DNA of 26,393 nucleotides from an uncultured bacterium (GTDB taxonomy: Bacteria > Chloroflexota > UBA5177 > JANWHV01). Shown here in pieces: positions 1,928 through 26,303 of this stretch; the stretch's first letter is position 1, and the number at the start of each line of letters is the position of its first letter. Made by a program: the position numbers and the translations under genes. Under the pieces are notes generated by a model. It was not told the origin of the DNA, did not search any database, and saw only the letters and a list, made by a program, of their open reading frames with translations. The stretch covers positions 1 to 26,393 of the forward strand of contig CAVSOU010000013.1 in NCBI GenBank assembly GCA_963729625.1, read 5' to 3'.

Positions 1928-1960
1928 CCTAATGCCCGCCTAATGGCAGCGTGCTATGCT
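1928..1960 (+). promoter_or_regulatory. Putative activator-dependent promoter: CCTAATG direct repeats with 11-bp period plus extended -10 TGcTATGCT
   Basis: CCTAATG at 1928-1934 and 1939-1945; TG-C-TATGCT at 1952-1960; upstream of ATG 1986. Confidence 0.4.
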
Positions 1961-1985
1961 GCGCTGGCGGAAGGCGAGTGTTGCC

Positions 1986-4628
1986 ATGAATGACGACCGA
2001 AGACCTGTTTCCTGCCCGCGGTGCGGCAGGCAGCGCGCCTCGCACGACAAGTTCTGCGGCGGATGCGGTCGCCTCTTTGACGAGCCGCCGGCGGACCAAC
2101 CGACAGAGGTCGGTGCGGTCGCGACGGTCGGCAGGGACGGCGCTCTGCCTTTGAGCCCAACCCTGCGTGTACCGCCTTCCGCCTCAACCACGCCGAGACG
2201 TACGATGGTCGAGCAAGGCGCGTCCGACGCCGATGGCAGTCCGGGTCCGGGACTGGACCGCCGGCAGGGGCTTGCAGCGGTTGAGTCCTGCTGCACTTCC
2301 GCCCCGGTCCGTGCGGGCGGCTATGTCCTCGTCATCTCACAGCCGGGCAAGCCGGAGATGACCACGACGTTGGGTGCGAGCCGGCTCACGATTGGCCGAA
2401 GCAGCACTTGCGAATCGTGATCGACGCACCCGGCGTATCCCGCCTGCACGCAGACGTGAAACAGGGCAGGGCGGCTACGTGCTGCGAGACCAGGGCAGCG
2501 CGAACGGCCTGGTGGTTGAAGGGGCCAGTGTCAAGGAGGTGGTGTTGCGCGAGGGTCAGCCGGTACGCATCCCCGATCCCTACGGCAACCTGATCACGCT
2601 TTCGCTGCGGGTCCGAGCACCGCCTCCGCAACGGGCGCAGGGTTTGCCGCCGCCGAAGCGCGCTGGCACACGCTGCCTCTGACGCGCCTGGAGCGTCGCT
2701 CACGATCGGACGGGACGCCACCAACGACGTGCGGCTCGACCAGCCGCTCGTCTCGCGCCGGCATGCGCGCGTGGAACGTACGGCGGACGGCCTGGTGGCT
2801 CGCGATCTGGGCAGCACCAACGGCACCTTCGTGAACGGCGCACGCGTCCAGGGCGCCATGACCATCGCTGATGGCGACGAGCTGCGCGTCGGTTCGGCCC
2901 GGTTTCTGGTGGAGGGCGCCGCGCTGCGCCAGTGTATCGAGAGCCAACACGTGCGATCGACGGCGTGAACCTGGTGCGGCGAGTCGGGCGCGGCGGCGCC
3001 AAAGTCATTCTCGATTCTGCGTCGCTCTCGATTCTGCCCGGCGAGTTCGTCGCTCTGGTTGGCGGCAGCGGAGCCGGCAAGACCACGCTGCTGCGGGCAC
3101 TCTGCGCCGTGGAGCGCGCACAGACGGGCCTTGTCCTGTTCAACGGTCTCGATTTCTACAGGAATCCCGGACCGTACCGCGAGATGATCGGCTATGTTCC
3201 GCAAGACGATATTCTCCATCGGGAGCTGACGGTCGACCGGGCCCTGCACTACGCCGCGCTCCTGCGCCTGCCCCCGGACACGTCGAGTGAGGAGCGCGCA
3301 AAGCACATCGAGGAGGCGCTCGCCGAGGTGAAGATGGAGGCCCAGCGCCATCAGCCCATCAGCAAGCTCTCCGACGGTCAGCGCAAGCGCGTGAGCATCG
3401 CCGTGGAGCTGCTGGCCAATCCCGGCGTGATCTTCCTCGACGAGCCCACGTCCGGTCTGGATCCCGGGCTGGACAAGACGGTGATGGCGCTCTTGCAGCT
3501 TCTCTGCGACCGAGGGCGGACTATCGTCCTGGTCACGCATGCCACCGAGAACATCTGCCTGTGCTCCCACGTGGCATTCATGGCGCGGGGCGGCCGGCTC
3601 GTCTATTTTGGACCACCGCCGAGGCGCCTGCCTCTTTCGGCGTTCCTTCCTTCCCGGATATCTACACGCTGTGCGAACAGCGGCCAGAGGAGACCGGTGA
3701 GCTCGAAGCGCGGTATCGCCGGTCGCCACACTACCAGCGTTCGTGCTCGACCGCCGGCAGGAAGCAGCCGCACTGACCGCGACGGCCGGCGCGGCGCGAG
3801 CATTCGCCGGCTTTCCGTGAAGGCAGGCGCTTGCCAGTGGTGGATTCTCACACGCCGCTACGCGGAGCTGTTGGGCCGGGACCGGCTCAATCTCGCCATT
3901 CTGCTGGCGCAAGCCCCGGTCGTCGCCCTGCTGCTGATCATGGTCGCCTCCCAATGCCTTTACCGTGGCCGATGTGCCTGGGACGCAACAAATCCTGCTG
4001 ATGCTGACGCTGGCCGCCGTCTGGTTCGGCACGATCAACGCCGCGCGCGAAATCGTCAAGGAGCGCCCTATCTACCAGCGGGAGCGGATGGCCACGCTCG
4101 GCATCGTGCCTTACATTCTCTCGAAGTTCGCCGTGCTCGCGTTGCTGTCGGTGCTGCAGTCCGCCGTCCTGCTCGTGGGGGTCTCTTTCAAGACTCACCC
4201 ATTTGCCAGCCCAGGGCATGCTCATGCCCGCCGGTATTGAGATCGGCATCACGGTCATTCTTACCTCGCTGGCAGGGCTCGCCTGCGGCCTGCTGCTCAG
4301 CAGCCTGGTCGCCACGGCGGACCGAGCCATGAGTATCGTACCGATTGTCCTGCTCGCACAGGTAGTGTTTTCCGGCGCTGCCTTCGAGCTCCAGGGCCCC
4401 AGCAGCCTGCTTGCGCGCCTGTTTCCGAGCCGTTGGAGCATGAGTATACTGGGACAAACGACCTGCCTCAACGCGCTGGGCGTGGCGGCAGGCGTGCCTG
4501 ACTTTCCCAAGCTGCTCTACGGCGGTGGCTCGGCGGCGCACGTCCTGGAAAAGTGGCTGGTGCTGGCAGCCTTTAGCGGGCTGTTTCTGATGGCGACGTA
4601 CTGGACCTTGCGACGACGTGACACATAA
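1986..4628 (+). CDS. Zinc-ribbon/FHA/FHA/ABC ATPase/ABC-2 permease fusion exporter (Rv1747-like), multiply frameshifted
   Basis: CPRCG..CGGCG zinc ribbon; FHA1 (LTIGRSS..VSRLHA..DQGSANG); FHA2 (LTIGRDATND..VSRRHA..DLGSTNGTFVNG); Walker A GGSGAGKTT, signature LSDGQ, FLDEPTSGLD; permease EIVKERPIYQRERM..PSRWS. Pieces spread across frames; pseudogene or sequencing error. Confidence 0.85.
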
Positions 4629-4668: not shown

Positions 4669-4960
4669 ATGGATGTGATCTGGCTGCTCGTCTATTGGCT
4701 TGTTCTGCTGACCGCGATCTACATGGCATACTCGACCGTGCGCGAAGGCGAGCAAACGCTGCTGCGCCGGCCGCTCTCGGTCCCGCTCACGCTCGCCGTT
4801 GTGGCGGCCGGGACCGGCTTGTTGGTCAGCGCCTTCAACCTCATTACCAACAACTACGTCGCCGGGAACTCGAGCTACCTGAACTACTACGCCAATGGCG
4901 CCTTACCCGAGGTGATCTCCGTGCTGCTGGCCCTGGGATCGGGATGGCTCATCAGACGCG
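4669..4960 (+). pseudogene. Membrane protein N-terminal part, fused in frame to an IS1182-like transposase fragment (ORF continues to 5226)
   Basis: GGAGG upstream; about three hydrophobic segments, then an abrupt switch to transposase-like sequence. Confidence 0.55.
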
Positions 4961-4962
4961 AC

Positions 4963-5210
4963 GCGGTGGCTGCGGCGGCCGGTGCCGATCTGGTGAACGG
5001 GCCGGCGAGTCTGAAGGCGGCGCTGGACCTGGACTGGGATGACCCGGCGGCACGTCAGGTGGCCCTGGGGCAGATCTTGCGTGCTCTGGCGCAGTTCGAG
5101 CAGTACGTGGCGACGCAGACCCTCTCGGCACTGGCAGCGATGGGTGTGGCGGAGCAAGTGGTCGCACAAGACGTCACCCGCACGCCGAGCGGCCAGCCGC
5201 AGCTGCGGGA
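4963..5210 (+). mobile_element. IS1182-family transposase internal fragment
   Basis: AVAAAAG..SLKAALDLDWDDPAARQVALGQIL..VAQDV..G.PQLR matches my recollection of the central helical region of IS1182 transposases; no ends or DDE core. Confidence 0.65.
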
Positions 5211-5564
5211 AGCACGCGGGCGGTAGGTGGCTGGAGCTCCCGGCCCCACGTACTACCTGCACGGGTTGCTGCTCGGACATGCAGCATCGCCGAGCCACTC
5301 TCAGCTGGTCGTGCACGCATCCTCAGGTCCGCGCGTACGCACAGTTCGGTACGCTGAAGCGAGGTTGAACTACCGAGTGGTGGAGGAGAAGATGGCTGAA
5401 AGGCAAGGTAAGGCGCGCTACCTGTGGTATCGCGTGCCGGCAAGCGCGCCGGTTGCCGGGGCGGCGAACTGCCTCGTCCGTGCGCGGCATGACCCACAAA
5501 GGCGCTACCACCCGCACTTCATGCCGCACGTCTGGCCTAGGGAACGCCGGGGTCAGGCCCCATC

Positions 5565-6272
5565 GTGGCTAAAGCAGCGGACACGCAGCGACTCGAGGCA
5601 TTTAGCGACGGTGTGTTTGCGGTCGCGATAACCCTGCTGGTCTTCGACCTGAACGCCGCGACGGGAGGCGGGTCGCTTGTGCAGCGGCTGGCGGTGCAAT
5701 GGCCGAGTTACGGCGCGTTCCTGGTGAGCTTCGCCATGATTGGGATCATGTGGATCAACCACCACGCGATGTTCCGCGACATTCGCGCCGCTGACCATGC
5801 GCTGATCGTGGCCAACCTCGCCGTCCTGCTCGTCGTGACTATGATCCCGTTCCCAACTAGAGTGGTGGCCGAGGCCTTCCAGTCCGGCTCCACGGACGAT
5901 CGCCGCACCGCCGCCATCGTGTATGGGCTGGCCTTTCTGGCATTCACGGTTGCATACAACGTGCTCTGGCTCCTGGCGGCGCGGGGGCGCCGGCTGATTG
6001 AGCCGGAGGCACAACAGGCCGAGATCGACGCGCGCACCCGCCGATCGCTGCTGGGTCTGCCGGCATACGGAGCGGCGACGGTGATCGCGCTGGTCAGCCC
6101 CGAGGCAAGCGTGGCCCTCGACGGAGTCCTAGCGCTGATGTATCTGTTCCCGGGAGGCTGGGTCGACCGGCTACTGGTGCCGGACTTACAATCTCAGGCA
6201 CAGGCCCCGGGTGACGAGAGCCTGATGATCGTGCGCGCTGCCCGCTGTAGTGCCGCCTGCTGCTGCACGTGA
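5565..6272 (+). CDS. TMEM175-family potassium channel (DUF1211)
   Basis: RLEAFSDGVFAVAITLLV TM1 signature, WPSY..F..SF..IG..WINHH, PFPT, about 6 TM helices; last ~25 aa may be non-native. Confidence 0.88.
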   Translation: MAKAADTQRLEAFSDGVFAVAITLLVFDLNAATGGGSLVQRLAVQWPSYGAFLVSFAMIGIMWINHHAMFRDIRAADHALIVANLAVLLVVTMIPFPTRVVAEAFQSGSTDDRRTAAIVYGLAFLAFTVAYNVLWLLAARGRRLIEPEAQQAEIDARTRRSLLGLPAYGAATVIALVSPEASVALDGVLALMYLFPGGWVDRLLVPDLQSQAQAPGDESLMIVRAARCSAACCCT

Positions 6273-6820
6273 AGTCCATGTGCCTGCGCATGTTTTACAC
6301 AGAACGATGTGGGTCTCCGGCCTTTCTGATGAAGCACAGACGGCAAGTTAGGCCGCGTGAAGCACGCGTTGATGGACGTCAATAGGGTCTGCCGGCGGTA
6401 GATCTCATCGTCGCCCATCATGCCTGCCCGCGTCGTTCGTGGGGACGACCGGCACGCCTCTCTCGAATGGTATCAGCTTGCTACTGTGGGCAGCGGTTGC
6501 CGGCCCACGTCGGCTGTTCGGCAGAGAGCCCAGCAGCACACATGGCCGGGGCGCACATTTCGCACTCGCTTGGCCTAGCAGAACAATAGTGCTGGCTGGG
6601 GTGCCACGCTGTCGTCTATGGCGCACCAACGCACAGAAGCTGCCGTTGCGCACGACCTGCCTTGCCAGCCCAAGGCAACCGCTCGGCAACTGGACACTGA
6701 TCGCCTCGCTTACAGGGTACGGCCAAGCCCTCCACCCCGGTGCTGCGAGCGCGGCCCGGAGACAGACCAGCACTATGTTCACTCTGCATAGGCGGCGATG
6801 ATCCGGTTCATCTCTGCATT

Positions 6821-7234
6821 CGGACGATCGCGCAGCTTGGCGACATGATCGGCCGCCATCCACGTCTGCGGTTTCAGTGCTTTCTTGCGAGCCGGCATGC
6901 CAACCAGGCACTCTGCACGCTTGCGCGCGAGTTGCCGAACTTGAGCCTGGCTGGCTACTGGTGGCACAGTTTCTTCCCCTCGGTTATGCGTGCGCTGATG
7001 GCTGAACGCCTCGACATGCTGCCAGCGAACAAGCAGATCGGGTTCTTCTCCGACGCCTACACGCTCGAGTGGAGCTACGCCAAGGCCGTGCTGGTACGCA
7101 AACAGCTCGCGCAGGTACTTGCGGAGCAGATTGTTCAGGGACAGCACACGCCGGACGGTGCGCTGCAGGTGGCACGCGGTATTCTCTATGAGAGTCCGCA
7201 ATCGCTGTTGGGCATCACGCCAATGTCACGATAG
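6821..7234 (+). pseudogene. C-terminal fragment of a glucuronate isomerase-like amidohydrolase-superfamily protein
   Basis: LARELPNLSLAGYWWH.FFP..KQIGFFSDAY.LEWSYAKA..ARGILYESP; N-terminal part absent. Confidence 0.65.
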
Positions 7235-7457
7235 GTGCCAGCGCAAGTGCGGCGACACAGGCGCTGCTGAAGGCAGCCATAACCTGGCGGAGCCTCCAGC
7301 ACCCCACGCGCGGCGGACGAGCAGATCACGACCATCCACGCGGCGGAAGCGCTGCAGTACCGGGCACAGAGGCATTTGTAGCCCTGCCATCTCTGCCAGG
7401 GTGGATCCGGTTGCGGCACGTTCCGAGGCGCGCCTTACGGTTGTACGGTTGCATTCA

Positions 7458-7862
7458 TCATAGATTCCAGTAAGGCTGGTGCAAGGCGACCACCCGATCC
7501 ACGGCCTGCTTGGCCTCGGCGGCGACACGATGCACTGTGGCAATCAGGTCAATGGAAGGGAGAAACTGATCCACAACGCGTGATCGACGGCTGCTCATTT
7601 CCTCGACAATTGCCAGCACACAGAATGGCACGTACACCCTGCTGTAGCCGCCTTCCATGCATATTGCCAGGCGTCCCTGACAGGTGTCGTCCGCTACTGC
7701 CTTTACTCGCCGCGTCATGGTGCGGTACCCCTCTGACGACACCATCATGCGCCCCATCGGATCATAGATACTGGCATCTTGCCCCGCCGAGACCAGGATG
7801 AGATCCGGCTTGAACTGCAGCAGAATCGGAACCACCAGGCGATCAAACGCACTGAGATAACG
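7458..7862 (-). pseudogene. C-terminal fragment of a class II histone deacetylase / acetylpolyamine amidohydrolase family protein
   Basis: FKPDLILVSAGQDA..DPMG and MEGGYS motifs; region upstream of YLSAF missing. Confidence 0.85.
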
Positions 7863-7921
7863 AAAGAGGGATCGCCCGAGGCGCGTCACGTGCCAACGGT
7901 GCCGGTAGCTGCGCGAACTCC

Positions 7922-8239
7922 TCACGGCGTTAAGCTGGGCAGGCTGCTCTTGCGCACGTAGTCGAAGAATCGCGCGCTCTCGTCCTCGGACGTCCACTCG
8001 GCGCGCAGGCTCGTGCGTTTGGCAATACGGCGCAAGCCTGAGAGCAGCGTGCGATTGAGATCCGCCGCGTTTTCCCCTTCCAGGAGCGCATGGACCCTGA
8101 CCCCCAGTTCGGTGTCTTCAACCTCGGCGCCGGGGAGCAGCTGCCCAAGTGCGGCACGCATGTCGGGCAGATTTGCACTGCGGACCTCCGCGACAAGCTG
8201 GAACTGCTTGGCTGTCAAACCGGATCTCCTTTGATTCAT
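7922..8239 (-). CDS. Small hypothetical protein (105 aa)
   Basis: Protein-like composition; LEGENAADLNRTLLSGLRR..LRAEWT..RFFDYV resembles an uncharacterised family I recall. Confidence 0.6.
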   Translation of the reverse strand: MNQRRSGLTAKQFQLVAEVRSANLPDMRAALGQLLPGAEVEDTELGVRVHALLEGENAADLNRTLLSGLRRIAKRTSLRAEWTSEDESARFFDYVRKSSLPSLTP

Positions 8240-8322
8240 CGATCTGCGGCGCTGCGCTACACGTGAGCGGCCGATGTGTCGCGCTCAAGGGTTCCCCATG
8301 TCAACTTGGGGAATCCCCCAAA

Positions 8323-8802
8323 TCAGCCGAGCGTCCGTTCGTCTCCGAGGAGTAGGGTGAGAAAGGCTTCGGCAGAGAGGTACGTGATGCCGTCGTAGGA
8401 ATGGCGTCCGTCCCGGCCACGCGGCGGGTAATGCCGGGTGTTCTCGGACACCACGTACTCGGCCCGTCCCTCAACTGCCGCAGCCCAAATCGGGTAATCG
8501 TTGGCGTCGAGCAGCGCAGACCAGGTGGGCGGGTATGGCGGCCGAGGGGTCACGACCTCGAATGTCAGGTGCAGGGCGGCCATCATCGCATTCGCGGCGT
8601 CGGAGCAGGCGCGTTCGGCGGCAACGGAGAGATCACCCGGCATGCGCGTCCTGATCCAGCGCCAGGTGAGGACGCGGTTCAGTTCGGCGATGATCCACGG
8701 GGACCAGAGCCCCGTGTACAGGCCTGTGGCGGCCACTTCCTGCAACTGACGGCGCAACCGATCGGAGTAGAGGGAACTGGTATCGAGGACGGCTCGGATC
8801 AC
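8323..8802 (-). CDS. PIN-domain toxin (PIN_3 / VapC50-like)
   Basis: IRAVLDTS, WSPWIIAEL, DANDYPIWAAAVEGRAEYVVSENTRHYP; GTG start overlaps the upstream TGA (GTGA). Confidence 0.85.
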   Translation of the reverse strand: MIRAVLDTSSLYSDRLRRQLQEVAATGLYTGLWSPWIIAELNRVLTWRWIRTRMPGDLSVAAERACSDAANAMMAALHLTFEVVTPRPPYPPTWSALLDANDYPIWAAAVEGRAEYVVSENTRHYPPRGRDGRHSYDGITYLSAEAFLTLLLGDERTLG

Positions 8803-9230
8803 CCAGTCGCCTCGTGCGCACGCTCCCACGGCAACCGTCCGGGCCGCCCGGCATGGAGTTGCTCAAGCTCTTCTTCGCTCATGTCCGCATCGCCACCCAG
8901 CGCTGCAGCGCGGTCATGCAGCTGATCGGCGACCTTGATCGCCCGCACCGGGTTACCGCCTCTGATGCGCTCGATCTCCGAGAGGGGAATCATCGTCCTC
9001 CCTCCTCGCTTGATGCCACGGATATACGCCGTCCGGCACCAGGCGAGAACAGTGTTCGGCGAGCGAATCCCCAGCAGGCGCGCTGCCTCGGTCGTCGTCA
9101 GCAGCCGATCGTCATCCAGCGAGGCGACGGCCTGGTCTAGTTCTCGCAGCACTGCGGTCAGGTCGCCAGCCCGCGCTGCTTCTCGCGCGCGTTCCAGCTC
9201 AGCGCGTAGTGTCTCCATCGTGGCACCCAT
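8799..9230 (-). CDS. Excisionase-like (HTH_17/MerR-type) DNA-binding antitoxin
   Basis: LLTTTEAARLLGIRSPNTVLAWCR..KRGGRTMIPLSEIERI; RBS AAGGAGG; coupled to the PIN gene. Confidence 0.8.
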   Translation of the reverse strand: MGATMETLRAELERAREAARAGDLTAVLRELDQAVASLDDDRLLTTTEAARLLGIRSPNTVLAWCRTAYIRGIKRGGRTMIPLSEIERIRGGNPVRAIKVADQLHDRAAALGGDADMSEEELEQLHAGRPGRLPWERAHEATG

Positions 9231-9259
9231 CGGCTTTTCCTCCTTGGTGGCTCACTCTC

Positions 9260-9288
9260 AGTCTATCGCAAAACCTCATATTCATCAA
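9260..9288 (-). promoter_or_regulatory. Sigma-70-type promoter of the HTH-PIN operon
   Basis: Minus strand TTGATG-N17-TAGACT in an AT-rich patch, ~30 nt upstream of ATG 9230. Confidence 0.65.
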
Positions 9289-9399
9289 TAACATCAAAAG
9301 GCGCAGCAGGCTCTGCGCTTTCTGCCGCCTCTTGAACGTACCGTTGGCCCAGGCCGCGCGCGGGGCTGTGAAGAGAAGTCGAGCCCGCGACATCAGCCG

Positions 9400-9459
9400 A
9401 AAAGCGTCGAGATAAGACGGGGTCAGCAGATGATGGTGGACGTCAATGCGTATGCCCAT
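9400..9459 (-). pseudogene. Amidohydrolase-family protein, only the first ~20 codons
   Basis: Strong RBS AAAGGAGG then MGIRIDVHHHLLTPSYLDA (DxHxH motif); similarity stops immediately afterwards. Confidence 0.6.
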
Positions 9460-9795
9460 GTGGGTCGGTCCTCCTTTCCGTGCTGGCGCCTTCTGCGGTG
9501 TGTTCCTGCGGCGCTGGCGCCAATGCCTCTTGCATCGCACGGGAGACGGCGCCGGCACGAGCAGGTTCGACCCCTGCGGCGATCAGGACGGCGGTCGCGG
9601 CCTCCTCGCCCGTGCCCGCCCAGGTGCCGGAGTTCACGCTCTCGACCAGGGCAATGGTACTGGCGGCCAGCATGTCATTGAGGACCACTGCCGGCAGGCG
9701 GTCATGGAACACGCCGGCAGCCTGGCCGCGCGCGAGAATCGTGCAGGCATGCCGGCGCACTGGCGCAAGCACATCCTCGACGCGCTCGTTTCCCA
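9443..9795 (-). pseudogene. TetR/AcrR-family regulator C-terminal fragment
   Basis: ILARGQAAGVF..LP motif typical of TetR C-terminal helices; HTH missing; stop overlaps the amidohydrolase start. Confidence 0.5.
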
Positions 9796-9803
9796 AATGC
9801 ATG

Positions 9804-10070
9804 CACATCTTTGGCGCGCTCGCCCAGTACGAGCGGGCGCTCACCCATGATCGGGTCATGGCCGGTCTCGCTGCCGCCAAGCGACGTGGTCGGCGCGGCG
9901 GCCGGCCGCCGGCGATCGCCGGCGAGAAGCTGGATGCCATCCTGGTCGCCCTGCATGGTGGCATGTCGAAGGCGGCAGTGTGTCGCAACTTCGGCGTCAA
10001 GCGCACCACGTTGATTGAGACGCTTGCGCGGATAGGTCTGCCCGCCGCCAGCGAGGCAGTGGGGGAGTGA
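9804..10070 (+). mobile_element. tnpR: Tn3-family serine resolvase, C-terminal fragment
   Basis: HIFGALAQYERAL..RV.AGLAAA.RRGRRGGRPP, HTH MSKAAVCRNFGVKRTTLIETL; catalytic N-terminus absent. Confidence 0.85.
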
Positions 10071-10351
10071 CGGCGAAGAGCGACCGCCTGAGCGTTCTGT
10101 CCGATGCCGAGCACGAGGCTCTGCATGGACTGCCCGACTTCGACGACGGCCAGCAGCTGGAGTACCTGTCGCTGTCTGAGACGGAACTGGCACTGGCGAC
10201 CAGCCGGTCCAGCTTCTACGCTCAAGTCTATTGTGTCCTGCAGATCGGCTACTTCAAGGCCAAGCACGCCTTCTTCCGTTTCGACTGGAACATGGTCGAG
10301 GCCGATTGTGCATTCGTGCTCAGCCACTACTTTTACGGCGAGGCGTTTGAA
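10067..10351 (+). mobile_element. tnpA: Tn3-family transposase N-terminal (DUF4158) fragment
   Basis: MTAKSDRLSVLSDAEHEALHGLPDFDD..LQIGYFKAKHAFFRFDW; GTGA overlap with tnpR; truncated after ~95 aa. Confidence 0.85.
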
Positions 10352-10356
10352 ATGCA

Positions 10357-10485
10357 CCACCTGCCGAGCCACCGCCAGCGGCGTCGGCGTCGGCAGCGAC
10401 GTACTGCTCGAACCGCTCGAGCGCCGCCACAATCTGGCCTAACGCCACCAGACGGGCCGCCGGGTCATCCCAATTGAGGTCCAAC
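10357..10485 (-). mobile_element. Second IS1182-family transposase fragment
   Basis: LDLNWDDPAARLVALGQIVAALERFEQYVA then, in a shifted frame, LAVARQVV; homologous to 5022-5165. Confidence 0.65.
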
Positions 10486-10489
10486 GAAT

Positions 10490-10960
10490 TGCCAGTGAAA
10501 TGTTGACCACCGCCAGTGGCTGACCGCGAATGGTCAGCAGCAGTTTGCCGATCGAGAAGAGCGGATACACCAGCACGGTGGCCGGCCTGCTCGTCGTGGT
10601 CGTAGCGGTAGCAGTGACCTTCACGCGCGTATTGGTAGCCGGGGGTGCAGTGGCGGTTGAGAGCAGCGTGCTCGTGGCCGTTGAGGTAGCTGTGCCAGTC
10701 GCGGTCGGCGTAATCGTCGCTATGGTCGTGCCGGTCGCAGTGGCTGTAGCCGTGCCGGTCACGGTTGATGTGGCAGTGCCGGTCGCGGAAGGGGTGTCCG
10801 TGCTGGTCGGCGTGGCGGTGGCCGGTGCGATCACGGTAAAGGTGGTTTGCACGTCGATGGCGCCGCCCACCAGGAGGGGGTTGGCATTCGGCACGTGGAC
10901 CGTCACCGTGTGAGGGCCGGGCGCGGCATCGGCCGGCACCGTCACCAAAACATCCGGACC
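10490..10960 (-). pseudogene. Internal fragment of a secreted/surface protein with a Thr/Ala/Pro-rich linker
   Basis: VTVPADAAPGPHTVTV Ig-like strand followed by ATATPTSTDTPSATGTATST repeats; no native start or end. Confidence 0.6.
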
Positions 10961-10987
10961 GCACGACGTGCCAGAGCCGTAGACCTG

Positions 10988-11332
10988 CTAGCGGTCCGCG
11001 ATCACGGTAATCGTGCCGTCGTGCTCCGTACGCGCTACGCGGCGGGAACCCTGCTCGCATGTGATCAGGCGGCCTGAGCGGTCGACGGTGTTGCCATTGG
11101 CGTAGTTCGCCGGCTGGCGGAACACGCCGACCGTGTTGGTCGGTTCGTCCCAGCGCAGCAAGCGGTCACTGGGAGTGTCGCTCCAGAGGAGGTAGCGACC
11201 GGCCGGAAAGTGGGCAGGGCCTGCGGCCCAGCGACAGCCGGTATACAGGTGGTCGAGGCGAGCACTCTCCTTGAGACAACCGTTGAAGCGCTCATCCAGG
11301 ACTTCGAGGATTCCCGGGTTACGTTCGGCCAT
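10988..11332 (-). pseudogene. SMP-30/gluconolactonase family, N-terminal third
   Basis: RBS AGGAGG; LYTGCRWA.GP..FPAGRYLLWSD, YANGNTVDRSGRLITCEQG, RTEHDGTITVIADR then TAG and loss of similarity. Confidence 0.85.
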
Positions 11333-11477
11333 TTCATCTCCTCCTGATACACACCATTCCGGCATACGCTGCGCACGCTCTAGTGGACCGGCCGAGTGCG
11401 CCCATGTGCAGCCGGTCACGCGTGGAGCGCACGGTGAGCACGCAGACCTGCGATAATCCCCATGGAGGCATCAGCGA

Positions 11478-11768
11478 GTGCACAGAGAGTTTCAACCACT
11501 TGATATCAGTAACGCACCGGACCTCATCCGGGTCGCCGAGGAGGTGCGGGCGGGGGGGCGGCCGCGTGTGCTGCAGCGCGACCAGGAAGACGTCGCTCTC
11601 TTGCTGCCCATCCCTGTGCACGGTCGCCGGGCCCGGTCACAGCGCGCCACAGCGCTGGATGGGCTACGCTTGAGCGCGGGTAGCTGGAAAGGCTTGCTCG
11701 ACGCCGACCAACTCAAGCGGGAGATCAAGGCCGCGCGCGGCTCGGACCGGCCTGACGTCACGCTGTGA
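11478..11768 (+). CDS. Putative antitoxin (Phd/YefM-like N-terminus)
   Basis: GGAGG RBS; TG-C-GATAAT at 11449-11457; VAEEV..G.PRVLQRD.EDVALL pattern; GTGA overlap with vapC. Confidence 0.7.
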   Translation: MHREFQPLDISNAPDLIRVAEEVRAGGRPRVLQRDQEDVALLLPIPVHGRRARSQRATALDGLRLSAGSWKGLLDADQLKREIKAARGSDRPDVTL

Positions 11769-12160
11769 AGTACTTGATCGACACAGATGTGCTGATCGAT
11801 TATCTTGCCGGCGACCCTACGACGGTCGCGCTGCTCCAGATTACCCTTGGCCCCAGTGGCATCGCGATCAGCGTCATCACCTACGCGGAGGTCTATATCG
11901 GCATCCTGCGAAGCTCGGCCAGGCGGCAAGCCGAAGCTGGCTTTCGCCAGTTCGTCCGCAGCGTGCCCGTCCTTGATCTGAGCAAGACGGTAGCGAAACA
12001 GAACGCAGCAATCCGGGTAGACCTCCTGCAGCGTGGTCGGACCACCCGACAGCGAGCGCTCGACTTGCTCATCGCCGCCACAGCGCTGAGTCATGGCTTA
12101 ACGCTCGTCACCCGCAACAAGGCTGATTACCAGGACATTTCCGGTCTTGCCCTGTATTAG
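11765..12160 (+). CDS. vapC: VapC PIN-domain toxin
   Basis: YLIDTDVLID, ISVITYAEVY.G, DLLIAATALSHGLTLVTRN..DY. Confidence 0.92.
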   Translation: MKYLIDTDVLIDYLAGDPTTVALLQITLGPSGIAISVITYAEVYIGILRSSARRQAEAGFRQFVRSVPVLDLSKTVAKQNAAIRVDLLQRGRTTRQRALDLLIAATALSHGLTLVTRNKADYQDISGLALY

Positions 12161-12199
12161 CGCTGCCTGAGTTGCCACCCTTTTGGCTCTCGCGTTTGT

Positions 12200-12583
12200 T
12201 GCGTCGGCGACAACGCCGAGGCGGCCAAGGCAATGGGCATCGACGCGCGCTGGGTGAAGATCCAGACCTTCATGTTCATGGGCTTCTCCTGTGCTCTGGC
12301 CGCGCCGATCGCGGTGCTGATCGACAACCAGTTCTATCCCACCACCGGCCAGGGGTATCTGCTGATCATCATCGCCGCCGTGTTCATCGGCGGCACGCCG
12401 ACCTGGGGCGGCGTCGGCACGATCGCGGGCGCGATCTGCGGAGCGTGCACGGTAGGGTTCATCGAGACTGGCCTGATCGCGGACGGCCTCTCGGGCTTCT
12501 GGACGAACCTGTTCTATGGCCTCGTGATCGTCCTGTCGCTCATCCTTCACCGCTTCAACCGGACGCGCGGCCGCAACGGGTGA
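12200..12583 (+). pseudogene. Monosaccharide ABC permease (RbsC-like) C-terminal fragment
   Basis: GDNAEAAKAMGI EAA loop, IAAVFIGGT...GGVGTIAG; N-terminal TMs absent. Confidence 0.8.
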
Positions 12584-12777
12584 CGTGCCTGTATACCTTG
12601 CCGACCGGGCCATCAAGCGGACGGCACCACGTCCCCCGCAAGGACGTGGTGATCGTCGATTCGCCTCGTGTCATTAGGGCGCAATGGCAAAGAGGCCATC
12701 CCGCCGGTGACCGGCATGAAAGGTAGTGGCGCGATGACGGCAGTCGCCCAGGCAGGTTCATAGAGATGCCCGTGGAG

Positions 12778-13866
12778 ATGACGTCTGCCGAACGGCTGGA
12801 GGCGGCGCTCGACGGCCACGACGTGGATCACCTGCCCTTCGCGCCTTTCCTCGCCTATCTGTGGGAAAGCCTGCCCGAGAGTGTTCAGGCCAGGGGCCAG
12901 CTTGCCTTCAACGACGCTGTTGGCGCCGACCCGCTCTGGCGCGGCGCCCCCTGCCCCGTCGTGCCGGTCATAGACGGTGCCGAGATCGTCGAGTCTACGA
13001 CCCCGGGCGGCCTTCGCCGGCAGGAGATCTGCACTCCGGTCGGCTCGCTGTGCCGGATCTGGCAGGCCAGCGAGACGGGCAACACCGAGTTTCTCGTCGA
13101 GCACCCGCTCAAGCGCGAGGACGATTGGAAGGCCCTACTTTGGGTCGAGGAGCACACGCGCTTCGCCCTGGACCTGGAACCGGTGCGGTGCCATTTCGAG
13201 GCGGACGGCAAGCGCGGCCTCTCGGTTGGTATCCTCGTGCCGCGGACCAAGACCGCCTTCCAGTCGCTGGTTGAACAGGAGGCAGGCACGCAGGAGCTTG
13301 CCTATGCCCTGGCCGATTTTCCCGATACCGTCGAGGCGCTCTGGCGCCAGACGATGGAGAACGATCTTGTCGCCGCGAAGTTGGCGGCGGAGGCGGACAC
13401 GCCGTATCGCTACTTCATCACCTGGGAAGACTCCGGCACGCAGAACTATTCGCCCGCGCTGTACGCACGGTTCATCGAACCGGAGACAGCCGGCTTCGTG
13501 GCCACACTCGCGCAGGCGGGTGGGAAGCGATACGTCCAGCACGCCTGCGGCCATGTCCGGCGGCTGCTCGAGCCCATCCGGCGCTCCGGAGTCTTTGCAA
13601 TCGAAAGCATTTCGCCGCCGCCCACCGGGGATGTCGAGATTGCGCAAGCGCGCGCCCTTTTGGGTCCCGACGTGGCGATCATCGGTGGGCTCGAGCCGAC
13701 AACCTTGCTCTCGACCTCACTCGAAGAACTGGAGCCCTACGTGGAGCGGACCATCGAGGCGCTCAGGGGTGGTCCCTTCATCCTGGCGAACTCGGACTCA
13801 TGTCCGCCCGGCGTCTCGTTCGAGAAGCTCGCGCTGGCCGCAGCCGTGGCGAAGCGACACCGATAG
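12778..13866 (+). CDS. Uroporphyrinogen decarboxylase / MtaA-CmuA methyltransferase family protein
   Basis: MTSAERLEAAL.G..VDHLP, TPVGSL, HACG, ESISPPPTGD, IIGGLEP, FILANSDSCPPG; uninterrupted ORF (alternative start 12766). Confidence 0.82.
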   Translation: MTSAERLEAALDGHDVDHLPFAPFLAYLWESLPESVQARGQLAFNDAVGADPLWRGAPCPVVPVIDGAEIVESTTPGGLRRQEICTPVGSLCRIWQASETGNTEFLVEHPLKREDDWKALLWVEEHTRFALDLEPVRCHFEADGKRGLSVGILVPRTKTAFQSLVEQEAGTQELAYALADFPDTVEALWRQTMENDLVAAKLAAEADTPYRYFITWEDSGTQNYSPALYARFIEPETAGFVATLAQAGGKRYVQHACGHVRRLLEPIRRSGVFAIESISPPPTGDVEIAQARALLGPDVAIIGGLEPTTLLSTSLEELEPYVERTIEALRGGPFILANSDSCPPGVSFEKLALAAAVAKRHR

Positions 13867-13947
13867 TGTCGGCGACACCGTATGTGAACCCCTAGATGCA
13901 ACACCATTCAGAACGTTGAAACGCAGACAATTGGGAGGACACTGATT

Positions 13948-14052
13948 GTGACCGACCTGAGATGGCCGAATCTGCCGCCCGCCGGTTGCCCGCTTGAGCG
14001 ATCGTCGCATCTCGGGGGCATCGTGTTCACGGGCCGCCACGCCTCCTATACA
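13948..14052 (+). pseudogene. N-terminal stub (~35 aa) of a hypothetical protein
   Basis: GGAGGA RBS + GTG; WPNLPPAGCP.E.S..LGGIVFTGRHASYT resembles the start of a family I recall continuing ADTWYPSW; sequence diverges at CATGCATG. Confidence 0.35.
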
Positions 14053-14469
14053 TGCATGCCCGCGGCGGCAAGAGGCGACAGCGCAGCGGGCGGCGCAAGA
14101 GCCGTCAGAAGGAGGAGGCACCCGCCCAGACTGGAAGGTAAAACTGCGTAAGCACGCACGATCGCCACGGTGGCCTTTTACACCACTTGACGGGACACGA
14201 TCTATTGGCCTTCGCTCGGACTATCGCGCCGTGGGCGCATGTGTTTGCCGGGGCCGGTATCGAATAGTGGGCGCCCAGGCACTTCGCAGCCGATCAGAGC
14301 GAGCATCTGCGCAACAGCTGCGTGCAAGGATGAGACGTCTACAATCGAAGGAGGAACGAAGCGAACTGGATGTGGCGAGGCACTGGACCGTCGGTTCCAC
14401 GGCGGCTACCGTCCCGAGAAGAGTCGACGAGCGAACGTCCGGCGCAGCCGGATAAGGAGAGCATACACC

Positions 14470-15339
14470 ATGCGTATCGGTGTCGTCTTCCCCCAGAACG
14501 AAATCACCGCCGATCCCATTGCCGTACGCGACTATGCCCAGGCGGCGGAAGGGCTCGGCTACACGCACTTGCTGTCCTTCGATCATGTGGTGGGCGCCGA
14601 CCTCACCAACCGGCCGAATTGGCAGGGGCCATACTCCGTCCACAGCCTGTTCCACGAGCCGTTCGTGCTCTATGGGTACCTGGCCGGTCTCACGCAGCGT
14701 TTGGAGCTGGTGACTGGCATCGTGATCCTGCCGCAGCGGCAGACGGTGTTGGTGGCCAAGCAGGCGGCGGAAGTCGACGTGCTCTCGGGAGGCCGCCTCC
14801 GCCTGGGCGTGGGCATCGGCTGGAACGAGGTGGAGTACCAGGCGCTGAACGAGCAGTTCGGCACTCGGGGCAAGAGGAGTGAGGAGCAGATCGCCGTGCT
14901 GCGAGCGCTTTTCAGCCAGGAATCGGTCACCTTCCACGGGCGCTGGCACCACATCGAGAGCGCGGGCATCAATCCGCTGCCTGGACGGCGGTCGATTCCC
15001 ATCTGGCTGGGCGGCAATGCGCCCGCCACGCTGCGGCGTGCAGGCACCGTCGCCGACGGCTGGTTCCCGCTAATGCCGCCGGGTGAACCTGCTCGCGAAG
15101 CCGTCGCCGCCATTCGCGCTGCCGCCACCGCCGCGGGTCGCGACCCCGACAGCATCGGTATCGAAGCCCGTATCGACTACGGCAGCGGCACACCAGACGA
15201 TTGGGCCCGCGCTGTGGAGGCGTGGCGGCTGCTGGGAGCCACGCACATCTCAGTCAATACCATGAGGGCTGGGCTGGGCTCGCCCCGAGAGCACATCGAA
15301 GCCATCCGGCACTTCAAGGAGGCCGTGCCGGCGGAGTGA
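14470..15339 (+). CDS. LLM-class F420-dependent oxidoreductase (Rv2161c-like)
   Basis: RBS AAGGAG; MRIGVVFPQNE, FDHVVGA, FHEPFVLYGYLA, VAKQAAEVDVLSGGRLRLGVGIGWNEVEY; intact. Confidence 0.92.
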   Translation: MRIGVVFPQNEITADPIAVRDYAQAAEGLGYTHLLSFDHVVGADLTNRPNWQGPYSVHSLFHEPFVLYGYLAGLTQRLELVTGIVILPQRQTVLVAKQAAEVDVLSGGRLRLGVGIGWNEVEYQALNEQFGTRGKRSEEQIAVLRALFSQESVTFHGRWHHIESAGINPLPGRRSIPIWLGGNAPATLRRAGTVADGWFPLMPPGEPAREAVAAIRAAATAAGRDPDSIGIEARIDYGSGTPDDWARAVEAWRLLGATHISVNTMRAGLGSPREHIEAIRHFKEAVPAE

Positions 15340-15401
15340 GCTACACTATCGGGGCGAGTTCCCGCGCACGTGCGGTTGGCCGATATGCGGCTGCAGGCAG
15401 G

Positions 15402-16016
15402 TCATCGATGATGTACGCCGGATCCGCTCTGCGGCATGGCAGCAAAGATGTTGCCGGCAGCCCCGAGGCCAGCCGCTTTCGCTTCCAGCTGTCGTTGCGA
15501 ATACTCCCGCAGGCGTGGGTCGTCCGGGGAGGCGGTGGCCTTGACCATGGCGTGCCGTCGTGGCAGGAACCATTTGAACTTCAGGAGGTAGCACCCCGAG
15601 CGTTTGTCGCCAAACACCCAGTTGTCCGCTCGCATCCGATTCAGCCGTCCCCAATAGCGTTGGGAGCGCCAGGAGATTGGCTTCTTGGGGTGACGGTGCC
15701 TGGCCCACTGGCATGCTCGTTTGAACATCCAGTCGTACAGGGCTTTGAAGGTTCGGGTCGAGACCACGGTGCGATAGTAGTTCGCCCAACCCCTGATGAT
15801 GGGGTTGAGCTTCTGACAGACCGTTACCGCGGATTTGCCTTTGTGCTCCATCCAGACGGCTTTGAGCTTGTCGCGCAGCTTCTTGACCGCTTCTTTGCTG
15901 GGGCGGATAAGGCGTTTTCGCCCCGTTCGAGTGCGCGGATTCTTGTACTGCCGGACATGGTAGCCGAGGAAGTCGAATCCTTCGTCCAGGTGGACAATGC
16001 GTGTCTTCTCTGTGTG
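15402..16016 (-). mobile_element. ltrA: Group II intron reverse transcriptase/maturase fragment (RT6-7 plus domain X; chloroplast-like class)
   Basis: EKTRIVHLDEGFDFLGY, LNPIIRGWANYYR, RHPKK, WVFGDK..G.YLLKF, ASPDDP.L.EY; YADD core missing. Confidence 0.88.
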
Positions 16017-16234
16017 CCTTGCGGCAAGCGGCCACCCTGCCCCAGGGTGTACGTTAGGCTGGTAAGGTTCGAGCCGTGACCTGGGAAAGAGTCCAGACCG
16101 ATGCCCGACGGTGCGCCGCCCAAGAAAACACGCGCGAGCGACGGCAACGCTGGGGCCAGCGCCACAGCTTGGTACACGCCATGGCCATCGAGCCGTTACC
16201 TCAAACCACCATGACGCCGCCAACGACGTGCGCG

Positions 16235-16320
16235 GTACGTGACGCTGAAGAGAGCTTTTGTTCCCGTCGGGGTCGGCGATGCTCCTGAAGCTCGGGTACC
16301 GGAGCCGGGTGGGCAGCATC
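16235..16320 (-). pseudogene. Possible VOC/glyoxalase C-terminal scrap
   Basis: IADPDGNK motif only. Confidence 0.25.
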
Positions 16321-16521
16321 TCGGGGATACAGGCAGGTTCGGGCGAACCACGCGTCCAACTGTGTTCAGATTGCAGGAGATCGACGCAGCGCTGCGGAAC
16401 CTGTCCCTGGATCTTGCCAGTGATACGGAGGAAGCCCTGGCCTGGCTGCCCCTACTGCGCAGCATCGGTGCGCGGGCAAGTAGGCTTTGTGACTGAGCGC
16501 TCGCGTGTATAGATGAGCCTG

Positions 16522-17443
16522 CTAGCCATGCCTGGCACCATCCCTGCGTGCACGGACCCTCGAGATGACCGATGGATCGATGTGTGATTCCATGGGTCCG
16601 AAGCTCTCCACCGAGCTTGCCGCCACCTCGCAGCCAACAGCGACAGCTTCCTTGGGGCTAGCTCCGGCAAGAACAGCGGCAACGTAACCCCCCGCGAAAT
16701 TGTCGCCTGCCCCGTCGGGGTCGACTTCTTGGGCCAGCGGAGCTGGAATGTGTTCCTTCGTGGCACCAATGCACAGATACACCCCATCGGCTCCAGCCTT
16801 CGTACACACGATCAGACCCGAGGCTGCAAGCTGTGCCTCATCGAAGCCAAGCCAGAGCAGCTCATCTCGGCTGGGGAAAACTACGTCTGCTTGAGCAATA
16901 AGCCGACGAACCTGCTCCACGGTAGTAACAGAGCCGCTTCGCGCCGGATGTTCGGGTCAACCGACACTTTGCCGCCAGCGGCCCGAACCCTTCGCACCGC
17001 ATCGATTACCACGTCCGCCAGTGTTGCTCCCAGGGCGATAGCGGAACCTGAGACGTGCAGCCAGCTTGCGCGCTCGGGCAAGTCGCCGAGGTCTTGCAGG
17101 CGCGATTGGCCTGCGGCGGCCTCGCGCACATAAAAGACGAAGCTGCGCTCGCCGGTGGCAGCATACGCGACGAAGGCTGCTGCAGTGGGAAGCACAGGAT
17201 CTATGGCGATATGGTCCACACTTACGCCATCCGCCGAAGTCGATCCACGATCATCCGACCAAACCCGTCGTTTCCCACAGCGCCGCACATCTCGGTCTCA
17301 GCACCGAGCCGGGCTGCAGCACTGGCGAAGATGGCTGGCGCCCCACTGGGTAGTGGGCCGACAAACGTGGCTGTCCGGTCAAACGGCACATCACGATCCG
17401 GGCGCATGAATGCAGCGATGATTTCACCGACAACTAACAGCAT
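16522..17443 (-). CDS. PfkB-family carbohydrate kinase, two frameshifts
   Basis: LVVGEII, GPLPSGAPAIFA, GAVGNDGFG, LHVSGS, VSVDPNIR, EVDPDGAGDNF; three frames. Confidence 0.88.
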
Positions 17444-17925
17444 AGCCACTACTCCCAGCGGGGGAACGGCACAGTCGCCTGGTGCCTCCCGCGGACGCTG
17501 TCTCTCGCGAGGCGGCTGCGCCAGCATGCACACAGAATACACTGCTGAGGACGACGCGTATGCTACTCCTGCCGAAGCGCCACGTCAATTGTGCAAAGTG
17601 CCGAGGATGTGCGCCGCATTGGCGGGCTACGCTGCGCCACGGCTGAGCGTAGCACGTAAACCTGGCGGGCACTCCGCGGCTGCCGCGGGGTTACAGCCAC
17701 CGCTGGGGTAGCTTAAGATACTGATCGATTGCAAACGATATGGTTAAGAGCAACAATATGAAACAGGAGCGAATGCAGCGACCTGGCAAAGTGGCGCGTG
17801 GGTGGTTGCCGCAAGTGATGGGGGGCGCGGCGTAGCAATCCACGCCGTACCACTCTGGCGGCGCGACGCTAGTACACGGCTGAGCAGGCCGCTGCGCGGA
17901 CGAGTAGTTACGCTGAGGACGCATC

Positions 17926-18613
17926 ATGATCAATGCAAGGATCGTGGACCTAAGTCACGCGCTCTACCCTGGTCAGGAAGAGTACCACCTGAACCTGAGA
18001 ACGCATAATACAGTCGATCTCTATCCGCAGTACCCGGTGGACGAGGGAGAATGGTATATCCTTCAGGATATAGACATGTCTTCGCACTGTGGCACACACA
18101 TCGAGTTCCCCTATCACCACAACAGGCATGGCATGGATGCTGGCACCTTTCCACTTGCCAGGCTCATCGGGGATTGTGTGCTGCTTGACTTCCGGCATAA
18201 GGAGTCGGGCGACCTCGTGACGCTCGAGGAAGTGAGGTCCTATGACAGCGTCATTCGGGCAGGTGACATGCTGCCTGTTCGACTTCGACTGTGCGAAAAC
18301 TACCGGACTGACCATGCCCACGATCGTCCTGCTGTCAGCCATGACGCCGATGAAGTGGCTCGTCTTCTGAAAGCACATCGATCTCATCGGATCGGACGCT
18401 ACTGGGATAGAGCTCAAGGGGGTGCCAAACCAGCCGAACCATCAGCTGTTGATGGATAATGGGATACCGATTATTGAGTTTGCTGCGCATCTTGATCAAC
18501 TGAGAAGCCAGCGGTTCACGTTGCTGGTGCTTGCTCTTGCAGTACATGGCCTGGATTCGTGTCCCGTTAGGCTGATAGCAATCGAAGATCAACAGCCGGG
18601 AGGACATTCCTAA
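17926..18613 (+). CDS. Cyclase-family (kynurenine formamidase-like) metallohydrolase, frameshifted
   Basis: IVDLSH, HCGTHIEFPYH, LIGDCVLLD, NHQLLMDNGIPIIE, GLDSCPVRLIA; TAATG overlap with the next gene. Confidence 0.85.
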
Positions 18614-19575
18614 TGGGATCGTGCGTTTCACAGGCTTCCGCACTGCGGCTGTACGGAAACATGGTCCGCATCAGAAAGTTCGAGGAGAAGCTGTTCTTCC
18701 TGTTCTCCACGAGGTCGATGCCCGGAACCATGCACCAATACAACGGCCAGGAAGCAGTTGCGGTTGGTGTCTGCGCTGCGCTGAACATCGACGACTACAT
18801 CACCAGCACGCATAGAGGTCATGGGCATTGCATAGCGAAAGGCGCTAGCCTCAACGCGGTGATGGCGGAGATGTTCGCCAAGAGCACCGGCTGCTGCAAA
18901 GGGATGGGCGGATCTATGCACATTGCGGACTTCAGTGTCGGCATGCTTGGGGCCAACGGCATCGTCGGAGCCGGCATACCGCAGGCGGCCGGCGCCGCCT
19001 GGGCTTGCAAGTATCAAAAGACCGGCAAGGTGGCGGTGGCGTTCTTTGGGGACGGTGCCGCGAATGAGGGCGCTTTTCACGAGGGCATCAACCTAGCGGC
19101 GGTATGGAGGCTGCCGGCCATATTCGTATGCGAGAACAACGTCTACGGATTCTCGACCCACTACCGACGAGTAACGCCCATCGAGAACATGGCGGACAGG
19201 GCGAGCGCCTATGGCATCCCTGGAGTCATGGCGGACGGGATGGACGTGCTTGACGTCTACTACAAGAGCCGGAAGCTGTCGCCGGGCACGAAGCGGGGAC
19301 GGCCCCACCTTGCTGGAATGCAAAACGTATCGATATATGGGGCATTCCCGGTCGGAAAAGCCCACCTATCGGACGCGGGATGAGCTTGAGTCGTGGAAGC
19401 TGAAAGATCCGATCATCAGCTTCGGGCGCAGGCGGTGAAAGACTTCGACGTGGCGGCAAGCGAATTGGCAGCCGTGAACGACGCTGTTGCTCAGGAGATT
19501 GAAGAGGCGGTGGCCTTCGCGGAAGCCAGTCCTGACCCGGGAGCGCTGGATTACCAGCGCTACATCTACGCGTAG
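18613..19575 (+). CDS. TPP-dependent 2-oxoacid/acetoin dehydrogenase E1 alpha, frameshifted
   Basis: IRKFEE, GQEAVAVG, STHRGHGH, GMGGSMH, GDGAANEG..CENN, KTYRY.GHS. Confidence 0.9.
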
Positions 19576-19590
19576 GTGCTGGGAAACAAT

Positions 19591-20627: not shown

Positions 20628-20939
20628 GCCCTCCTGACGGGGAACTGACGTGGGATGAATCCGACACACGACTTTGATGTCGATTAGATGCTATTGGTCT
20701 TCGGCCCGCGCTGAGCGCGCTCTAGCGGACTGGGTCCAAGTGGACCGCCCTCCCCAGTTGCCTGCGTACGGGTCTCGCGCCCGACCGGCCTTCCCGGCAG
20801 AGAGCCGGTTCCGCGGGAGATCCGCCGATACAGGGGTGGCAGAGACATAGCTTGAGAGCATCGCCGTCCGGACGGGGGGGGAGTGGTTCCTGCGCTTTCA
20901 TGACAGCGATGCTGACGATTGGCGCGGAGGTGGCCCAAC

Positions 20940-22212: not shown

Positions 22213-22276
22213 AACCGGTCGCGCTGCGGCTCTGCACGCAGCGGCGCACGGCTCGCTCCTCGGCCAAACGTGGGGG

Positions 22277-22990: not shown

Positions 22991-22992
22991 GG

Positions 22993-23121: not shown

Positions 23122-23154
23122 ACGCGGCCAATCGCGCACGTCGCGGGTCTCAGG

Positions 23155-26295: not shown

Positions 26296-26303
26296 ACTGG
26301 GCC

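Follow-up and report, generated by a model that had tools for sequence, protein, structure and literature searches.

A patchwork of mid-gene-cut, undecayed gene pieces on a contig of a probable Chloroflexota bacterium

The 26,393-bp contig CAVSOU010000013.1, analysed here in its entirety as the window, has a GC content of about 64% and probably stems from a Chloroflexota bacterium. Between about positions 4963 and 16016 it carries a patchwork that includes at least ten genes, each broken off internally and adjoining unrelated DNA, with the pieces in mixed orientation. The pieces abut directly, resemble the rest of the contig in composition and are undecayed, and it is this neighbourhood of undecayed scraps and decayed genes that makes the region unusual. 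We tentatively favour a genuine origin in the organism, a dispensable stretch of whose own DNA would have been scrambled recently by illegitimate joins and deletions; an artefact of assembly or amplification is the most serious rival of this reading.

Cut genes and whole genes in the patchwork

The original prediction had described positions 4960-16500 as a string of at least 12 fragments cut mid-gene, with intact genes interspersed. All stop-to-stop open reading frames (ORFs) were scanned against Pfam and NCBIfam, targeted homology searches were added, and the string was borne out: at least ten truncated genes have support from these tools, and the Thr-rich and amidohydrolase-like pieces that were also counted do not. 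The cut pieces are as follows.

4669-4962, plus strand: first 98 codons of a native membrane/double-zinc-ribbon gene, forming the left border of the patchwork (homologue P0032)
4966-5223, plus strand: left internal piece of an IS1182-like transposase, residues about 200-286 of DUF772 + DDE transposases of about 525 residues; best match 81% identity
6827-7234, plus strand: last quarter of the glucuronate isomerase gene (uxaC), stop codon included (NCBIfam NF002794, profile 328-455 of 459)
7461-7862, minus strand: C-terminal part of a histone-deacetylase-family gene (Pfam Hist_deacetyl 211-297 of 298, E 4e-20)
9397-9459, minus strand: amidohydrolase-like start of about 21 codons, overlapping the TetR stop codon (translations read by eye; Pfam and PDB give no support)
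9446-9814, minus strand: C-terminal half of a TetR-family regulator, helix-turn-helix (HTH) half missing
9810-10351, plus strand: Tn3-family piece running from the last 85 or so codons of tnpR across the gene boundary into the first 95 or so codons of tnpA
10355-10559, minus strand: right internal piece of an IS1182-like transposase, residues about 193-266 (tblastn with full-length transposases)
10574-10987, minus strand: Thr-rich, surface-protein-like C-terminal piece (from its translation; truncation suggested by its abrupt start at the junction alone)
10991-11332, minus strand: first 114 codons of an SMP-30/gluconolactonase gene with an AGGAGG ribosome-binding site and ATG (Pfam SGL 1-77 of 246)
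12179-12583, plus strand: C-terminal third of a sugar ABC permease (Pfam BPD_transp_2 153-269 of 269; NCBIfam GguB 247-374 of 375)
15501-16016, minus strand: group II intron reverse transcriptase (RT)/maturase piece, RT-7 and X domain (TIGR04416 245-353 of 353, and GIIM)

At the left edge, the homologue P0032 (208 residues, with zinc-ribbon domains) matches the native stub at 73% over its residues 1-98, and for its residues 99-208 the window gives nothing better than shuffled controls do. The rest of this interrupted gene is thus missing from the window, which excludes a simple insertion. A relative's 118-residue protein, P0031, on a contig of 1.03 Mb, is 80% identical over the first 90 or so residues, beyond which it follows the gene in another reading frame, so that this relative also carries, or was assembled with, a frameshift there. 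The tail of P0031 could be read as crossing the left junction, yet a frameshifted reading of the native gene explains it as well or better, and we did not count it as a shared junction.

Remnants of unrelated mobile elements, namely two IS1182-like pieces, a Tn3 piece and a group II intron piece, are clustered within 11 kb. No complete mobile element is present in the window, every one of these lacks both its ends, and neither the ends nor the terminal repeats of the IS1182-like, Tn3 and intron pieces were found in it. The left IS1182-like piece has 24 longer protein matches at E<=0.001, most with the domains DUF772, DDE_Tnp_1 and DDE_Tnp_1_6, and stands in frame with the preceding membrane gene stub (ORF 4669-5223). 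The two IS1182-like scraps form a 91-nt inverted repeat (5021-5111 and 10396-10486) of 78% identity. They represent the same central 70 or so transposase residues on either side of a 5.3-kb segment, an arrangement with no evident function. That both cover the same part was considered as meaningful and dropped, the coincidence being estimated at roughly one in ten.

By megablast, the DNA of the Tn3 piece shares 76-78% identity with Cupriavidus and Xanthomonas plasmids (78% for Cupriavidus); Pfam and NCBIfam models match the piece too, and its homology ends sharply in the alignment. The intron piece corresponds to residues 324-488 of the 592-residue Rhodococcus LtrA (E 1e-43), and the catalytic RT part is absent; no Rfam intron model matched that would indicate intron RNA domains. 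For the IS transposases, the RT and the membrane gene, the earlier claim that the missing parts lie nowhere else in the window stood.

Some pieces keep a natural gene boundary. The original prediction had seen such donor synteny in two places, of which tnpR-tnpA is supported by megablast and alignment and TetR-amidohydrolase is visible by eye only. The uxaC and deacetylase pieces meet with convergent 3' ends, resembling one donor segment cut at both sides. For the TetR piece, 59 representatives at E<=0.001 are matched in their C-terminal halves, and ten of the 12 matches scanned carry TetR_N ahead of the matched part; a PDB sequence search with the piece gave nothing, nor did one with the amidohydrolase-like ORF. 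The Thr-rich piece found no homologue in the plasmid collection (tblastn). The gluconolactonase scrap closes with TAG exactly at its junction and is closest to Chloroflexota/Thermomicrobiales proteins, at 68-73% identity, with 72-73% over 100% of its length, and the permease scrap aligns without a frameshift and begins at most 18 nt past the vapC stop codon.

Between the scraps stand two putative toxin-antitoxin pairs and three other whole genes, so the interspersed intact genes were correctly seen. They are listed below with one further ORF.

5565-6272, plus strand: TMEM175-like potassium-channel homologue, apparently intact (Pfam TMEM175 1-88 of 88, E 8e-27)
7922-8239, minus strand: 105-codon ORF without a Pfam or NCBIfam match; PDB matches at chance level only
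8323-9230, minus strand: intact PIN_3 toxin-like gene and HTH_17 partner, a putative toxin-antitoxin pair (Pfam PIN_3 1-115 of 115 and HTH_17; NCBIfam RSP_2648-family PIN)
11478-12160, plus strand: intact VapC (PIN) toxin gene and an upstream 96-codon ORF, its putative antitoxin (Pfam PIN 1-113 of 120; NCBIfam VapC 1-126 of 130)
12766-13866, plus strand: apparently intact URO-D/MtaA-like methyltransferase gene of 366 codons (partial matches to Pfam URO-D and NCBIfam MtaA/CmuA)
14440-15339, plus strand: intact F420-dependent LLM-class oxidoreductase gene (TIGR03619 2-246 of 247, E 9e-82)

The two PIN-domain pairs are the only compact modules that are fully intact in the patchwork. For the LLM gene, the best loci are Chloroflexota metagenome-assembled genomes at 72-73% identity. 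Its frame extends upstream over 14239-14440 (about 67 codons) without a homologue, and the 80 loci kept in a genome-collection scan described below match mostly from residue 57-78 or so; this extension is probably a chance open frame, and perhaps the 'N-terminal stub' that had been counted among the fragments. About 2.5 kb fall into gaps without an assigned family, among them 5227-5560, 6273-6826, 7863-7921, 13867-14440 and 16017-16520, whose 97 short ORFs gave chance-level Pfam matches only at E<=0.5.

Junctions, composition and relatives

Four junctions could be placed within 3-11 nt (4962/4966, 9799/9810, 10351/10355 and 10987/10991). All four are direct abutments without filler, which is the look of homology-independent joining. 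Is there, then, any trace of a system that did the joining? Pfam and NCBIfam scans of the window's ORFs gave no integrase, no recombinase domain beyond the truncated Tn3 resolvase, and, in Pfam, neither Ku nor LigD. Short-range inverted repeats show no recurring hairpin of the attC kind at the junctions, as judged with no dedicated attC model, and no repeat family was found there. The 9-mer CCTGCTAGC (plus strand) is common to two junction-side stop codons (10988-10990 and 16522-16524), and we put this down to chance, about 1.8 shared 9-mers being expected. Thus the earlier statement that integrase, attC sites and a shared junction motif are missing agrees with each of these checks.

Breakpoints at library restriction sites had been named as a sign against the patchwork. 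Across 13 junction intervals, palindromic 4- and 6-mers show no convincing enrichment, GATC occurring in five of them against 3.8 expected. GCTAGC has two of its three sites at junctions, where it is simply the TAG stop codon. In the window, ARAGORN predicts no tRNA and Rfam reports no family at gathering score (one chance match has E 0.95); promoter and terminator scans remain at shuffle level, and the codon-usage frame plot is too weak to segment the region.

By composition, the patchwork appears to belong to its contig. In tetranucleotide signature, middle and flanks correlate at r 0.91, where 71 other high-GC loci reach 0.85 at most and have medians of 0.71-0.75, and 5-kb pieces of the contig correlate at 0.70-0.84 whatever their position. 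GC content at third codon positions is uniform (65-88% in blocks of scraps and intact genes). The pieces accordingly look native, apart from the Tn3 piece, which alone among them is plainly of a foreign type judging by its sequence. Together with the Chloroflexota-like gluconolactonase scrap, the native signature and uniform third-position GC argue against capture from diverse donors and against a cross-organism (metagenomic) chimera, whose blocks would be expected to differ in signature and here do not. Several genes of the contig point to sugar or sugar-acid catabolism: uxaC, gluconolactonase, the sugar ABC permease, a PfkB kinase, a DeoR regulator, a zinc-dependent alcohol dehydrogenase (ADH) and a TIM-barrel protein.

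Nucleotide searches placed only single pieces. Megablast of positions 1-25000 against plasmids matched the Tn3 piece alone in the 30 records listed, of 1096; blastn in distant mode with positions 4900-12899 matched only the Tn3, gluconolactonase or permease pieces in the 60 records listed, of 1742, and with positions 12900-17600 all seven records match the RT or the LLM gene. Queried by tblastn, the plasmids yielded no match to the fusion ORF 4669-5223, to the PfkB piece or to the ABC-2 permease piece. When a genome collection was scanned with the LLM protein as query and the 80 loci kept were compared by tblastx, just three strong high-scoring segment pairs fell outside the query gene, in three of the 80 loci.

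Frameshifts in the flanks

What the original prediction had missed, while rightly finding the frames of the patchwork clean, is that both flanks are riddled with frameshifts, so that the contig as a whole would be either a region in decay or sequence of low quality. The flanking features are the following.

34-1746: BNR/Asp-box repeat protein of 570 codons, intact, with a clean frame
1956-4628, plus strand: gene for a zinc ribbon/FHA/FHA/ABC ATPase/ABC-2 permease protein, with its Pfam domains scattered over several frames (translations in three frames, inspected by eye)
16525-26303: right-flank genes, full-length but mostly frameshifted (Pfam domains split over frames; frameshift-aware alignment)

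The left-flank FHA/ABC gene needs at least seven frame changes to be read, as counted by eye, and we take its architecture to be reminiscent of mycobacterial Rv1747. The 466-codon ORF at 2932-4332 within it, which seems intact, is partly an out-of-frame read-through. The right flank is a sugar/acetoin-type catabolic cluster in which seven of nine genes are frameshifted (PfkB kinase, E1 alpha, E1 beta, E2, DeoR regulator, zinc-dependent ADH and ABC ATPase), with 16-18 frameshifts in all, and two, the cyclase and the TIM barrel, are clean. Frameshift-aware alignment to homologues gave two frameshifts for E1 alpha, four for E1 beta, five for E2, one for ADH and one to three for the ABC ATPase. 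The clean BNR gene at the far left contains four 44-nt direct repeats (229, 400, 550 and 1099), reflecting repeated blades.

Altogether, at least 23 frameshifts were counted over about 9.6 kb of flank pseudogenes, or about 2.5 per kb. The scraps, which as genes are certainly dead and of which about 3.5 kb can be assessed, hold at most one and no internal stop. At the flank rate about 8.7 would be expected (Poisson P(<=1) = 0.0016), so the scraps would have died much later than the flank genes, unless the flank frameshifts are sequence errors.

The frameshifts are not uniform along the contig: clean frames run through the BNR gene (1.7 kb), the cyclase, the TIM barrel and all of the 11-kb middle. 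Three clean flank genes next to broken ones are what genes under selection would look like in the company of true pseudogenes. A homopolymer of four or more bases lies near three of 13 frameshift contexts, about chance level, and the insertion-to-deletion ratio of the flank indels is near 0.7. For leaf-nodule Burkholderia pseudogenes, the indel data given in PMC6054270 are a mean of 4.6 indels each, an insertion-to-deletion ratio of 0.76 and no link to homopolymers. The gene-specific occurrence of the frameshifts, together with a per-gene number, indel balance and homopolymer independence like those of published pseudogenes, favours real pseudogenes in the flanks.

How the patchwork may have arisen

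On the reading we tentatively favour, illegitimate recombination that needs no homology would have broken up the organism's own genes and its resident mobile elements (IS1182-like, Tn3-family and group II intron) and joined the fragments directly to one another. This would have taken a short succession of deletions and inversions, or one burst, and would be recent compared with how old the neighbouring pseudogenes are. At every join two unrelated points would be fused directly, regardless of gene limits, leaving segments of 0.2-3 kb, some of which would retain a natural gene boundary (tnpR-tnpA, TetR-amidohydrolase, the uxaC/deacetylase 3' ends). The process would have spared the toxin-antitoxin pairs, which are addictive, and a few genes still of use; toxin-antitoxin modules are reported to prevent deletions (PMC6354349). 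The fusion ORFs, which had been proposed to be new, would be by-products rather than new genes, because GC-rich sequence has few stop codons; they are expected by chance in such stop-poor sequence and show no sign of being genes.

Several observations weigh against this. The locus is represented by the sequence of one contig, on which alone its proteins are seen, and no relative with the ancestral arrangement appeared among the 80 loci, none of which shows synteny. No complete mobile element or recombinase able to make the cuts is present in the window. An artefactual chimera would likewise present clean gene pieces with abrupt joins, just as seen here. Finally, the five right-flank genes that were aligned contain no in-frame stop, the pattern expected of indel-type sequence errors, and if the flank frameshifts are such errors, the argument for young scraps is gone. 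The probability of finding no nonsense codon beside the 13 indels checked lies between 0.02 and 0.32, at 10 to 3 substitutions per indel.

The caution that the patchwork might be a chimera was well placed. That it arose as an assembly, amplification or cloning chimera, or as a low-quality consensus in which the flank frameshifts are indel errors, or as both, is a serious possibility, to which we give somewhat less credence than to real scrambling. Pieces of whole genes of a single genome would then have been put together in vitro or in silico. The single 26,393-bp contig, the perfectly clean copies of which the scraps consist, the one-genome composition throughout and the lack of a nonsense codon beside at least 13 indels would all suit it, and the frameshift of P0031 in the same gene suggests that some assemblies in this clade are error-prone. 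However, assembler and ligation chimeras usually join two molecules rather than a dozen pieces of 0.2-1 kb, and chimeras from multiple displacement amplification duplicate nearby sequence in inverted form, whereas the only repeat here is the 78%-identical pair of insertion sequence scraps. The junction intervals show no excess of restriction sites. A uniform error rate is at odds with frameshifts that spare the BNR gene, the cyclase, the TIM barrel and the 11-kb middle. The frameshifts lie near homopolymers about as often as by chance. One scrap with its own ribosome-binding site and start codon, and intact toxin-antitoxin pairs between scraps, also have a biological look.

If the scrambling is real, it might have been a single event. 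In the chromothripsis of eukaryotic cells, the pieces of a region are rejoined in random order and orientation with intervening pieces lost, the junctions lack homology and all are of one age. A bacterial counterpart, in which a catastrophic shattering (for example by desiccation or radiation) was followed by end joining in random order with most pieces lost, seems unlikely to us. The shattered stretch would on that reading have held sugar-catabolic genes, resident transposons, an intron and toxin-antitoxin modules, and its scraps would still be undecayed. Unlike in chromothripsis, descent of all the pieces from a single locus is conjectural here. To our knowledge, which on this point includes no literature search, chromothripsis is undescribed for bacteria.

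Slow neutral decay, the gradual form of the serial deletion at a hotspot that had been proposed, would have whittled down a longer ancestral region by many independent deletions and left remnants in ancestral order. The pseudogene-rich flanks would fit this, as would sugar and sugar-acid scraps that, together with the flank genes, resemble a single decayed catabolic locus, and scraps that border intact genes as tightly as the permease piece borders vapC. But scraps with at most one frameshift where some 8.7 are expected make it a poor fit, and the mixed orientation requires inversions besides deletions. Twelve large deletions with almost no small ones are also the wrong spectrum, small indels being far commoner than large deletions in the pseudogene data of PMC6054270. 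The decay described for leaf-nodule Candidatus Burkholderia (PMC6054270; PMC2817411) resembles our flanks, whose genes carry several small indels without a homopolymer link; it differs in that the scraps have large cuts and almost no small indels, and in that the flank pseudogenes checked have no in-frame stops. We regard slow decay as an improbable origin of the patchwork.

The repeated integration of short foreign DNA, the other origin proposed earlier, fares no better. It would make the region a capture hotspot, where short foreign or extrachromosomal pieces were ligated serially into double-strand breaks at one site, for example by Ku/LigD end joining. Such joining can insert heterologous DNA into a chromosomal break in Sinorhizobium, even two cassettes in tandem, according to experiments described by Dupuy et al. 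(NAR 2019, PMC6379672), and its direct joins in either orientation, made without homology, are like those that our junctions appear to be. Four of about ten scraps come from mobile elements with free or abundant DNA forms (the two insertion sequence pieces, Tn3 and the intron), and the Tn3 piece has its DNA likeness to proteobacterial plasmids. However, those experiments concern one or two fragments, whereas here about a dozen mostly native pieces adjoin and the remainder of the interrupted gene is lost from the window. The native signature of the middle (r 0.91), the uniform third-position GC and the Chloroflexota-like gluconolactonase and LLM genes leave integration of foreign pieces without support, and whole genes with their own signals, including the two toxin-antitoxin pairs, stand between the scraps. 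Capture is thus quite unlikely.

A degenerate integron-like cassette array, or another site-specific capture platform, would share the short units and interspersed toxin-antitoxin modules reported for chromosomal integrons (PMC11551772; PMC13108822), but with no integrase in the window scans, no attC-like sites, recurring imperfect hairpins or common junction sequence, mixed orientation and units that are gene fragments cut mid-gene, it is effectively refuted within the window.

Where, then, does the patchwork belong? Mosaic accessory regions, such as 'transposon graveyards' and multiresistance regions, normally have their cuts bordered by the complete insertion sequence copies that made them. 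Like them, the patchwork combines truncated transposase, resolvase and intron genes, nested remnants and toxin-antitoxin modules with no coherent operon logic; unlike them, it contains no complete mobile element, and about half of its scraps are ordinary metabolic or regulatory genes. It had been put forward as a candidate for something undescribed; we would class it instead as one more scrambled accessory region without a function, denser than ordinary genome decay.

Whether real or artefactual, the patchwork lends no support to a new gene-capture system. As an artefact, it would warn that a contig with native composition, intact toxin-antitoxin genes and donor synteny can still need read-level proof. 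If it is real, it would be a dated snapshot of a dozen homology-independent joins too recent for decay, beside much older pseudogenes, and would show how quickly dispensable DNA can be reshaped by illegitimate recombination in a phylum that has received little study, and that toxin-antitoxin pairs survive such remodelling.

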